Part shown: piece by piece, positions 36,199 through 59,177 of the stretch
Layout of the letters: every line of letters begins with the position of its first letter
How positions within the stretch are numbered: the first letter of the stretch is position 1
IMG/VR virus record: IMGVR_UViG_3300042885_001472
Strand: one strand, 5' to 3'
Length of the DNA: 64,000 nt
DNA from: a virus
Taxonomy: Duplodnaviria > Caudoviricetes
Program-made: the position numbers and the translations under genes
The notes under the pieces: model-generated
What the model was told of the DNA's origin: nothing
Database searches by the model: none
The model's input: the letters and a program-made list of their open reading frames with translations, nothing else

Positions 36199-36613
36199 GG
36201 GTCCGACATGGTTTTGACAGCTAAGTTGATGATTAGGTGTAAGCACGTAGTGAGATGTCAACTATCACTTAAATCTATGTTGGTAAAAAATAAATGCAAC
36301 AATCGTTAAAAACGAAGTCGGTACTTTAGCCGATGTCCTAATGGCTGAGAAATACAACCTATTAGGTGCTATCAAAGGAACAGAAGCTGAACTAGCCCTT
36401 TCTTAGTTATATCCGGAGAAGTATAGTAACCGGATCGCGTAAAACAGTAAACACTTATTGATACTGGGTGGATAAAATTAGGTCAACTATTTTGGTATTG
36501 TGATAGTAAATTCAAAACACCTTATTTGTCAGTTTATAAAAATTGAATAAACGTGTAGAAGACCAGTTATTAAGTAGTATGGACGAGGGGTTCGATTCCC
36601 TCCGGATCCACTA
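36199..36613 (+). ncRNA. ssrA: tmRNA
   Basis: 5' GGGTCCG pairs with 3' CGGATCC-A, including G3-U70. T arm GAGGGG-TTCGATT-CCCTC; TTTTGAC D-loop analogue; internal tag ORF 36296-36406. Confidence 0.9.
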
Positions 36614-52894: not shown

Positions 52895-53851
52895 TTATCT
52901 CATATTTTTAAAAATGTGAGAAATAACATCAACCGTCCATCCATTACCAATCATTTTTCTAATTTTATTTTTTGACAATCCAATGTTACTATAATTTACC
53001 GGTAATGTTTGTAATCTTTCCAATTCATTAATAGTGTAACTTCTAAAATTTAATTCAGAATCCACTACATAATCCAGTGTAGATTCTCCGGTTAAAAGAC
53101 AATTAGATTTTTTAGTTTTTAATGGTAAATACTCTTTATGTTCTTTAGTCCTTGGTGTACTATCAATACCATGTAATTGTCTTATTCTTTTCCTTTCTGA
53201 TCTACCAAGTTCCGTTCTGGTCTCATAAATAGTGTAAGGTATTTCAACTCTATTATTTAATCTAATAGTCTTACCATTTTTGGCGGTCAACTGATATTCA
53301 CCATCACTATCAAACTCAATTTTAACACCCCCAACATTTTTATCTAAAATATCTTTTAATTCAATCCCCATATCCATTGGTTGTTCAATACCTGGTATGT
53401 TAGTCCAATACAATCTCCGTCTATGTTGACTAGACACCAAATGAGAATTGATCAAGATGGGTTCAACACCAAGGTATTCTGTAATAACATTCTCAGATGT
53501 TTTTTTCATCCTAACATTTTCAAGTAAAAAGTATTTAGGGTTTAATTCATTTTTTAATCTAACAAATTCAAAAAATAATTTACTCCTTGGATCTTCAAAG
53601 TTCAATTGTTTACCAGCGAAACTGAAGCCTTGACATGGACTACCACCTATTAATAAATCTATCTTTGGTAAAGTATCACTAACTAATTTAGTGACATCAC
53701 CAACCTGGATTGTATTGGGATAATTGTGTTGTGTAACCTTAATGGCGTCTTTATCAACCTCTGAAGCGTAATAATTCTCATATTCGATACCTACCCTATT
53801 GAGAGCGATTTGACCACAGGACATTCCATCAAACAGACTTAAAACATTCAT
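52895..53851 (-). CDS. DNA (cytosine-5) methyltransferase 2
   Basis: SLFDG, GGSPCQ, ENV, RRRLYW, GNGW. Confidence 0.95.
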   Translation of the reverse strand: MNVLSLFDGMSCGQIALNRVGIEYENYYASEVDKDAIKVTQHNYPNTIQVGDVTKLVSDTLPKIDLLIGGSPCQGFSFAGKQLNFEDPRSKLFFEFVRLKNELNPKYFLLENVRMKKTSENVITEYLGVEPILINSHLVSSQHRRRLYWTNIPGIEQPMDMGIELKDILDKNVGGVKIEFDSDGEYQLTAKNGKTIRLNNRVEIPYTIYETRTELGRSERKRIRQLHGIDSTPRTKEHKEYLPLKTKKSNCLLTGESTLDYVVDSELNFRSYTINELERLQTLPVNYSNIGLSKNKIRKMIGNGWTVDVISHIFKNMR

Positions 53852-54398
53852 TTTCTATTTTTTTATAAAGTTCATCAATAGTACCATCATTCGTAAATAA
53901 CACATCCGGAGTTATTTTTTCCATTTCCGTTTCCGAGGGGTGTAAATCTAAAGATGTTAAAGATGGTCTAACCACTTTCCATACGACACCACCCAACGTT
54001 TTAATGATATCAACCTCATGTTGAAATCTAACATCCGGTATTACAACAGATAAATTAGGATTTTTCTTAATTTCCTCATTGTACCAAATCTTAAATCTAT
54101 GAACCCATATGTGTCTACCAATGTGGGATAAATTAACCGTGTGTTTATGGATATCATATTGTAACATTTCTGTTCCCATTATTTGTAAAACTTCTCTGGC
54201 TGAGATTCCCCAATTAGGATCAATGGTTTCTTTATCATCACCCCATAATTGTTCATCTGTAAAACAAAAGATTTCCTTGGCCGCTTTCTTTAAGGGATCA
54301 GCGAATGAGTAACGAATAAATCCGTGTGAATTAATTAATAAATTGGCTGACGTATCTTTCCCTGATCGTTTTAACCCTAAAATACCTACTATTGACAT
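53829..54398 (-). CDS. deoxynucleoside monophosphate kinase (T4 gp1-like)
   Basis: P-loop GLKRSGKDT, FADPLK, R..LQ..GTE, DVRF.HE. Confidence 0.85.
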   Translation of the reverse strand: MSIVGILGLKRSGKDTSANLLINSHGFIRYSFADPLKKAAKEIFCFTDEQLWGDDKETIDPNWGISAREVLQIMGTEMLQYDIHKHTVNLSHIGRHIWVHRFKIWYNEEIKKNPNLSVVIPDVRFQHEVDIIKTLGGVVWKVVRPSLTSLDLHPSETEMEKITPDVLFTNDGTIDELYKKIENECFKSV

Positions 54399-56618: not shown

Positions 56619-56674
56619 ATTAGGTTTTGTTGTTGTATTAAAATTAGGTTTTGTTGTTGTATTAAAATTAGGTT
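56619..56674. repeat. 24-bp tandem duplication
   Basis: ATTAGGTTTTGTTGTTGTATTAAA x2 plus a partial copy. Confidence 0.85.
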
Positions 56675-56843
56675 ATTTTACTTTAACTAATGTTTTGGTC
56701 TGTACAGATTTGACTGACCAACTTTTAAGATCTGGATTTAAAATCTTAACTAAGGATATTTTATCTCCATACTCATACATTCTAACTTTACCTAAATTAG
56801 AATGTTCAACCAGTTCATTTTCTTTGAAGATTTCTTTTTTCAT
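56673..56843 (-). CDS. hypothetical protein
   Basis: ATG 56843 (MKKEIF); the track extension overlaps the tRNA. Confidence 0.55.
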   Translation of the reverse strand: MKKEIFKENELVEHSNLGKVRMYEYGDKISLVKILNPDLKSWSVKSVQTKTLVKVK

Positions 56844-56868
56844 GTTATTTGATTTTTTAAATGATAAG

Positions 56869-56943
56869 TGATCCCGACAGGATTCCAACCTGTAACCCTT
56901 GTCTTAGAAGGACAATGCTCTGATGCGGTTGAGCTACGGGACC
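56869..56943 (-). tRNA. tRNA-Arg(TCT) with non-canonical elbow
   Basis: GGTCCCG/CGGGATC acceptor, GCTC/GAGC D stem, TTGTC-CTTCTAA-GACAA anticodon arm, T loop TTGGAAT. Confidence 0.85.
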
Positions 56944-57360
56944 AATATTTATGTATGTTGAGTACAAATGTAATGATTATTTTTAATAAAACAAATTTAT
57001 TTTTTAAAAAACAAGTAGTAGAAACTTAGAACCCCACCTTTTGGGGGTTACAGAGAACAGATATTTCTACCCCTAAGTTAATTTTATGTCTTGAAAACTA
57101 CTACTTGTTATTAAATCTACTTACAACTACCTCTACCATATTTCTATGAGTCACTGTCCTGATTGTAAGTTGTAGTCTTTAGAACTACTAGATTTAATGT
57201 GTTTACCTGTCACTCCAAGTGTGTGAATAATCTGTTATTACCATAATAGGGCCAGTCATTATCTATCCACAAACAACTCCCTCTTGGTGTGGGATATACA
57301 TCTTATATCTATCACTAGACAAATTCCACTGTATTTGTTTGCTTTTAGCGGGTAAATATT

Positions 57361-57506: not shown

Positions 57507-57575
57507 TAGTCATAGCAGGACTTGAACCTGCATCATCCTAACCCAAGTTAGGGTTCTACATTGAGCTATATGACT
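57507..57575 (-). tRNA. tRNA-like element with 6-nt anticodon loop (Pro/Gln-like pseudo-tRNA)
   Basis: AGTCATA/TATGACT acceptor, GCAGG-TTCAAGT-CCTGC T arm, CCTAA-CTTGGG-TTAGG. Confidence 0.65.
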
Positions 57576-59067: not shown

Positions 59068-59081
59068 ATTCTTTTTTTTTG

Positions 59082-59177
59082 TTGTTAGGACAAGATTCGA
59101 ACTTGTATAAGTGAACTAATCGTTTCTTAACCATCACATTCATTAGTGATGTACATATACCACTCTGTCACCTAACA
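59082..59177 (-). tRNA. class II (Leu-like) tRNA-like element with expanded anticodon loop
   Basis: TGTTAGG/CCTAACA acceptor, ACAAG-TTCGAAT-CTTGT T arm, CATCA-CTAATGAATG-TGATG, long variable arm. Confidence 0.6.

Follow-up and report, generated by a model that had tools for sequence, protein, structure and literature searches.

The pair that joins residue 19 of the D loop to residue 56 of the T loop is taught as a nearly invariant G19-C56, and it forms a surface that is recognised by RNase P, the ribosome and several proteins. At the distal face of the elbow, recognition occurs mostly by stacking on the flat surface of this pair (PMC4810234). Base-specific reading of C56 has also been described: a plant protein-only RNase P cleaves a C56G substrate to 0% (PMC5039416), and C56 is read base-specifically in the thiolation of U54 in Thermus (PMC7912444), so that a flip of the pair need not be silent for every partner. 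The flipped pair itself has been engineered as G19C/C56G in synthetase studies, and is reported to retain the loop-loop interaction and an aminoacylation no different from wild type (cited in PMC3602588). These are laboratory mutants of other tRNAs, whereas the phage gene described here, which has the same flipped pair, is natural and kept by selection. Among phage tRNAs, those of van den Berg et al. 2023 (PMC10264068) likewise depart from the host isoacceptor where the sequence is usually regarded as fixed; their changes lie in the anticodon loop, whereas the present tRNA combines a host-identical anticodon loop with a changed elbow.

Here we analysed a tRNA-Arg(UCU) gene in the window, that is, the whole 64,000-nucleotide stretch of viral DNA. 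With the E. coli argU type and the tRNA-Arg(UCU) of Bacteroidota, its product shares the cloverleaf, the D stem GCUC/GAGC, the anticodon loop CUUCUAA, a 5-nt variable loop, the bases A20, C35, U36 and A73, and G18, U54, U55, G57 and A58 of the elbow. It differs at the elbow pair: canonical tRNA-Arg(UCU) carries G19-C56 (G19 in 136/136 parsed C56 sequences), the phage tRNA C19 and G56. Two replacements that keep the Watson-Crick 19-56 pair and leave the other elbow bases untouched were found, namely A19-U56, in five Bacteroidota chromosomes and in LR756502, and C19-G56, which occurs on 37 IMG/VR contigs and in the tRNA arrays of MAGs, cyanobacterial ones among them. Within the part of the literature that our search covered, we found no description of a natural C19-G56 or A19-U56 pair in bacterial or phage tRNAs.

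Structure, numbering and conservation of the tRNA gene

ARAGORN called a tRNA-Arg(tct) at 56868-56943 on the minus strand, and Infernal matched Rfam family RF00005 to 56943-56869 over the full model (1-71) with 58.9 bits and an E value of 3.5e-10, at a cut-off of 29 bits. The cloverleaf is also the lowest-energy fold of the 75 bases (-23.6 kcal/mol, z -1.98; shuffles average -18.0). These three results bear out an earlier note on this DNA, which had placed a tRNA-Arg(TCT) at 56869-56943. The gene and its key positions are as follows.

56869..56943, minus strand: tRNA-Arg(UCU) gene of 75 nt with discriminator A73 and no encoded CCA (ARAGORN, Rfam, fold)
56924..56926, minus strand: D-loop G18 (56926), C19 (56925) and A20 (56924), placed by Infernal; C19 is the flipped partner
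56906..56908, minus strand: anticodon UCU in the loop CUUCUAA, with U33 and A37 (ARAGORN, sequence)
56882..56888, minus strand: T loop UUGGAAU, positions 54-60, with G56 at 56886; U54, U55, G57 and A58 are canonical

Read on the minus strand, the 5' part of the gene is GGUCCCG UA GCUC AACCGCAUCA GAGC A UUGUC CUUCUAA GACAA, and the 3' part that follows GACAA is GGGUU ACAGG UUGGAAU CCUGU CGGGAUC A. The acceptor stem GGUCCCG/CGGGAUC is connected by the linker bases U8 and A9 to the D stem GCUC/GAGC, which closes the D loop AACCGCAUCA; the anticodon stem UUGUC/GACAA bears the loop CUUCUAA, and after the variable loop GGGUU the T stem ACAGG/CCUGU closes the T loop UUGGAAU. All four stems are intact, as the earlier note had held, and the sole non-Watson-Crick pair is G2-U71 in the acceptor stem. 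The molecule has the dimensions of an elongator type I cloverleaf, with acceptor, D, anticodon and T stems of 7, 4, 5 and 5 bp and 7-nt anticodon and T loops. The tertiary bases U8, A14, G18, U33, G53-C61, U54-A58, U55 and G57 (R57) are present, and so is A15-U48.

In the Infernal alignment, the single G of the D loop falls on consensus G18, the C next to it on consensus G19 and the T-loop G on consensus C56. The alignment and the minus-strand sequence both match the D-loop and T-loop strings, and the assignment of C19-G56, that had been given for this gene from its letters. G19-C56 as a literal sequence is absent; C19 and G56 stand in its place, with the Watson-Crick 19-56 pair kept. The bacterial ArgRS identity set, as known from E. 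coli, consists of A20, C35, U36 or G36, and A73 or G73, with A20 as the main identity base. All of it is present in the phage tRNA (A20 at 56924, C35 at 56907, U36 at 56906 and A73 at 56869). Apart from positions 19 and 56, the tertiary and identity sites are all canonical.

An identical tRNA gene is found in four separately assembled metagenome contigs (L222-L225), which come from different samples and pipelines (JGI 3300034105 and 3300020572; ENA ERZ27271747 and ERZ27271695). In a diverged relative, L219 (SRR24908169), the tRNA is identical at 74/75 positions, the only difference being a change of U20a to C, and both C19 and G56 are kept. Between the window and L219, identity is 98.7% in the tRNA, 96% in the 25-nt spacer after it, 85% in the next small ORF and 51-67% in the upstream DNA. 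Conservation of the tRNA at 98.7% against 51-85% in its flanks points to purifying selection on the tRNA and rules out sequencing error. A read-level error at either base, which would have undone the C19-G56 assignment, is thus excluded, if indirectly, by the four identical assemblies and by the retention of both bases in L219. An artefact of sequencing or assembly at either base is therefore vanishingly improbable; the same 19-56 pairing also recurs in 46 distinct sequences from elsewhere.

The neighbouring gene for a 437-aa protein recurs on many contigs of up to 294,686 bases, and relatives of the protein are 81-87% identical; the L219 copy is about 82% identical to that of the window. Searches of IMG/VR with the NusG-like and the 437-aa neighbour proteins yielded no relatives. 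A metagenome scan for the T-arm family with position 56 left free returned five unrelated canonical tRNAs; the window's own lineage was not recovered in that scan, and no canonical ancestor was found in it.

Covariation and distribution of the flipped pair

As a check on the numbering, IMG/VR was scanned for tRNA-Arg(UCU) genes that share the D stem of the window's tRNA, with position 56 fixed as G or C and the D loop unconstrained. The G56 pattern was also applied to 185,579 species of bacteria and archaea, each represented by one genome, and 401 Bacteroidota genomes were scanned with any base allowed at position 56, in a search centred on a MAG with the flipped pair. With intact stems required, 191 distinct tRNA-Arg(UCU) sequences were obtained, in four of which the D loop could not be parsed. 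G19 was present in 136 of the 138 C56 sequences, C19 in 46 of the 48 G56 sequences and A19 in 5/5 U56 sequences, the rest being the unparsed ones. No mismatched 19-56 combination occurred among the 191 distinct sequences, and the G-C and C-G classes separate with a Fisher p of 3e-44.

The flipped sequences are uniform around the pair. The trinucleotide G18-C19-A20 is present in 46 of the 48 distinct flipped sequences (the other two are unparsed), and 45 of the 48 have a T loop with GUUGGA. Their D loops are mostly ACUGCAU, AUUGCAU or GUUGCAU. Because the only C in most of these loops follows G18, the partner of G56 is C19 rather than C16 or C17. A different numbering of the D loop, the other way in which the initial assignment could have failed, is excluded by the perfect covariation of positions 19 and 56 over the 191 sequences. 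The earlier note had further proposed that the double change implies selection for structure, and this proposal gains support from the same covariation together with the 98.7% conservation of the tRNA between flanks at 51-85%. Sequence comparison thus indicates that the 19-56 pair is held by purifying selection.

From G19-C56, C19-G56 is reached by two transversions through a mismatched intermediate, and no such intermediate was seen among the 191 sequences; A19-U56, unlike C19-G56, is reachable through a G-U wobble intermediate. On a tree of 180 masked sequences, position 56 changed state 25 times, compared with 43-46 times in 10 runs with shuffled labels; this tree rests on 44 columns, so the number of origins of the flip is not reliably countable from it. 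The flipped phage tRNA-Arg(UCU) genes have very different, unrelated acceptor and anticodon stems. The nearest relatives of the window's tRNA outside its own lineage, L024 and L010, are flipped as well and share 39/44 and 36/44 compared positions with it. No shared gene content of the window with L024 and L010 was found in the fetched loci, and a tblastn comparison of every window ORF with the viral loci that hold flipped or canonical tRNA-Arg(UCU) detected no synteny. At least within the fetched flanks, the flipped tRNAs are therefore not simply those of one phage family.

A survey of phage tRNAs for C19-G56, which had been suggested as a check, was thus carried out on IMG/VR. The G56 pattern matched 40 of 2.9 million viral contigs, and 37 of these hold true tRNAs. 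The canonical pattern was matched by at least 118 contigs and the D-loop subtype ACUGGAU alone by at least 119, with 9 shared between both; if both scans ran in the same order, this gives at least about 1,500 canonical phage tRNA-Arg(UCU) genes, which is a bound and not a measurement. Based on this bound, the flip makes up at most about 2.4% of phage tRNA-Arg(UCU).

Within the loci that carry it, the flip is confined to one isoacceptor. Among 127 neighbouring tRNAs in the flipped viral loci, none has C19-G56; 116 are canonical G19-C56, 6 have A19-U56 and 5 another combination. The absence of C19-G56 from the neighbours indicates that the flip is specific to the tRNA-Arg(UCU) isoacceptor in these phages. 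Of the tRNAs that adjoin canonical tRNA-Arg(UCU) genes, 290/293 are canonical. Other arginine isoacceptors have C-G, U-A or A-U pairs in a few loci, in a sampling for which arginine tRNAs had served as bait. A compensatory replacement of a second kind was observed in the 642-kb uncultured phage LR756502.1 (L004), whose tRNA-Arg(UCU) at 582306-582388 has the D loop ...UGAAU and the T loop UUUGAUC, that is, A19-U56.

Among the 185,579 bacterial species, 25 loci match the G56 pattern, 3 of which are tRNA fragments. Most of the remainder lie in dense tRNA arrays with 19-30 tRNAs in 8 kb or less, many of them in filamentous cyanobacteria, and others carry tRNAs identical to those on phage contigs. 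Arrays of 18-30 tRNA genes per 8 kb with a flipped tRNA-Arg(UCU) are found in L051, L058, L061, L063, L068, L069 and others, which are cyanobacterial, Chloroflexaceae and Holophaga assemblies; in L058, over 20 tRNAs combine a UGCAA-type T loop (G55) with a D loop that lacks GG. The window does not belong to this group of arrays, as its 64 kb contain a single standard tRNA, along with two tRNA-like RNAs.

In the Bacteroidota set, 361 of the 401 genomes gave a tRNA-Arg(UCU) match, and about 98% of the 361 have the canonical pair. C19-G56 is present in 1/361, which is the MAG that served as the search centre, Bacteroidetes bacterium UBA1952 (G001 contig C184; L059 / L214). In this incomplete MAG, the flipped gene is located between genes for an Fe-S protein and an M20 peptidase, a cellular-looking context, and no further tRNA-Arg(UCU) match was detected. 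UBA1952 may represent a cellular lineage living on the flipped form; that the flipped gene is the only tRNA-Arg(UCU) detected suggests that the housekeeping enzymes of Bacteroidota accept C19-G56. Chromosomal tRNA-Arg(UCU) with A19-U56 was found in 5/361 genomes, G064, G140, G060, G288 and G044 (L200, L203, L204, L205 and L211, respectively), which indicates that the elbow pair of tRNA-Arg(UCU) varies in cells too.

Genomic context, host and codon use

The DNA derives from a very large phage of lake water with a genome of roughly 295 kb, whose host probably belongs to the Bacteroidota. Several window proteins match phage families. The acceptor stem and discriminator of the tRNA, GGUCCCG...GGGAUC-A, differ by one pair from the common Bacteroidota form GGUCCGG...CCGGAUC-A, the variable loop and T stem (GGGUUACAGG) are those of the commonest Bacteroidota tRNA-Arg(UCU) type, and the anticodon loop CUUCUAA does not differ from the one in chromosomal tRNA-Arg(UCU) of this phylum. 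The following elements flank the gene.

56965..56995, minus strand: promoter-like motif, TTTG (56995-56992), 19 nt, TACATTTG (56972-56965), read directly from the sequence
56673..56843, minus strand: 56-aa ORF, starting 25 nt after the tRNA

The -33/-7 promoter consensus of Bacteroidota is TTTG...TAnnTTTG. The arrangement TTTG-19 nt-TACATTTG resembles such a promoter and would support a Bacteroidota host. It ends 21 nt upstream of the 5' end of the tRNA, and the TACATTTG box and the stretch from there down to the tRNA are conserved in L219. A scan for sigma-70 promoters yielded nothing above chance. Downstream, the 56-aa ORF is followed by a 73-aa ORF and by a NusG-like gene with a NusG Pfam match; since this order is the same in all relatives, the tRNA may head a transcription unit and be co-transcribed with these genes.

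The window has a GC content of 28.7%, and in its 54 ORFs of at least 120 codons AGA accounts for 339 of the 487 arginine codons (70%) and AGG for 56 (11%). Given this share of AGA, the simplest role of the tRNA would be ordinary AGA/AGG decoding with an elbow whose shape is preserved.

Further RNA genes were noted in the window. At 57507-57575 on the minus strand lies a tRNA-like RNA that scores 44.5 bits with the Rfam tRNA model. Its acceptor stem and T arm are perfect, but a loop of 4-5 nt closes the anticodon stem; the D loop reads AAUGUA and the T loop UUCAAGU. L222, L223 and L225 retain this RNA, and it was not found in L219, which has an HNH endonuclease gene upstream in its place. A 97-nt tRNA-like gene at 59081-59177 on the minus strand has an 8-nt anticodon loop (UAAUGAAU), for which ARAGORN gives the 4-base anticodon AUGA. 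Its variable region is very long and its elbow canonical (GG / UUCGAAU), and the product could be either a tRNA of the frameshift type or a tRNA-like RNA that does not decode. A phage tmRNA is present at 36199-36613 on the plus strand (Rfam, 81.9 bits), with a 20-residue tag according to ARAGORN, and the contig of a distant relative, P0007 (40% identity), carries a SmpB gene near NusG-like and DUF932 genes. Just downstream of the 437-aa gene, at 52895-54398 on the minus strand, are genes for a C-5 cytosine DNA methylase and for a protein of the DNMK family (deoxynucleoside monophosphate kinase); the order of the 437-aa, methylase and DNMK-family genes is conserved in all relatives.

Function of the tRNA and meaning of the flip

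In our view, the gene probably encodes a working elongator tRNA-Arg(UCU), and the flip is most likely a tolerated, lineage-specific alternative with no demonstrated extra function. The tRNA would be transcribed, probably from the Bacteroidota-type promoter upstream, and its 5' leader would be trimmed by the host RNase P. A host CCA-adding enzyme is proposed to complete the 3' end because no CCA is encoded, and the host ArgRS would charge the tRNA through A20, C35, U36 and A73, after which it would decode AGA and, by wobble, AGG. A flipped Watson-Crick pair has the same geometry, so both the lock between D loop and T loop and the flat stacking face are expected to be kept, and the remaining elbow contacts (G18-U55, U54-A58, G57 and A15-U48) are unchanged. 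Since the elbow is read mostly by stacking, the flipped pair should satisfy both the RNase P RNA and the ribosome. What speaks against a purely neutral change is that its recurrence across very different stems is somewhat unexpected.

That the gene is not used in translation at all, being instead a decaying pseudo-tRNA, a decoy like the adjoining tRNA-like RNAs or the remnant of an integration site, appears very improbable. It is clustered with tRNA-like RNAs whose anticodon arms are abnormal (57507-57575 and 59081-59177), which would fit such an origin, but its own anticodon arm is normal, with a 5-bp stem and a 7-nt loop containing U33 and A37, and none of the ArgRS identity bases is missing. 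A compensatory change is the opposite of decay, and decay is equally at odds with the 98.7% conservation of the tRNA next to flanks at 51-85%. Moreover, the gene is full-length and not a 3' fragment, and no integrase gene adjoins it in the window or in the gene calls of its relatives.

The earlier note proposed evasion of a host tRNA-targeting factor. That the flip is adaptive in this sense, hiding the phage tRNA-Arg(UCU) from a base-specific reader of G19 or C56, strikes us as rather unlikely. Such a reader could be an enzyme of the host, either an anti-phage tRNA nuclease or one that modifies tRNA, or else a phage-encoded nuclease could remove the canonical tRNA-Arg(UCU) of the host and spare the phage copy; either way, the phage would keep AGA decoding under an attack on the host tRNA. 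The distribution of the flip fits host evasion in that phages are enriched for it: 37 flipped genes were found in 2.9 million viral contigs and 25 matches, mostly in arrays or in tRNAs identical to those of phages, in 185,579 bacterial species. In the likely host phylum, about 98% of the 361 genomes have the canonical pair, so mimicry of a host tRNA is rejected as a reason for C19-G56. The size of the enrichment is rough, however, since a bound is all that is available for the viral denominator. Unrelated acceptor and anticodon stems and the roughly 25 state changes on the tree suggest repeated origin, and each origin would require two transversions through a mismatch that was never observed, but a tree of 44 columns does not allow origins to be counted reliably. 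C19-G56 and A19-U56 also occur in cellular-looking contexts of Bacteroidota, and the flip affects tRNA-Arg(UCU) only (0/127 neighbouring tRNAs with C19-G56, 116 canonical). The tRNA-like RNAs that adjoin the gene would be in line with evasion.

With respect to a possible reader, T-boxes are mainly a feature of Firmicutes and are unlikely to matter in a Bacteroidota host. We know of no nuclease that reads the 19-56 pair, and our literature searches found no defence nuclease of this kind. Base-specific readers of C56 do exist (PMC5039416, PMC7912444), and phage tRNAs that escape anticodon nucleases by sequence changes provide a precedent (PMC10264068). That study, however, does not concern the elbow, which it mentions as little as the D and T loops, and the anticodon-loop differences from the host isoacceptor at nuclease determinants that define its class are absent here: the loop CUUCUAA, the usual target of such nucleases, is identical to the host type. 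The normal charging reported for the engineered G19C/C56G tRNA (PMC3602588) argues in the same direction. A more specific version, which we hold to be quite unlikely, is that the flipped pair acts as a self-mark, passing the stacking readers (RNase P RNA and ribosome) and escaping a base-specific reader of G19 or C56. Such a reader would be an undescribed host anti-phage tRNA nuclease, a T-loop modifying enzyme or a phage nuclease directed against the host tRNA-Arg(UCU). If this were true, a conflict over the tRNA elbow would have left its footprints in the swaps seen in phages, in tRNA arrays and in reduced genomes.

Returning to the favoured reading of a working tRNA with a shape-preserving elbow, the comparison indicates that a small fraction of phage arginine tRNAs have the flip and that the shape of the elbow is kept. 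A natural, selected C19-G56 and the strict covariation over about 190 sequences place the constraint on the pair and not on its bases. The C19-G56 phage tRNA also offers a natural substrate for asking which readers of the elbow are base-specific. If any host or phage factor tells the two orientations apart, the elbow would join the anticodon loop as a site of conflict between phage and host over tRNA.
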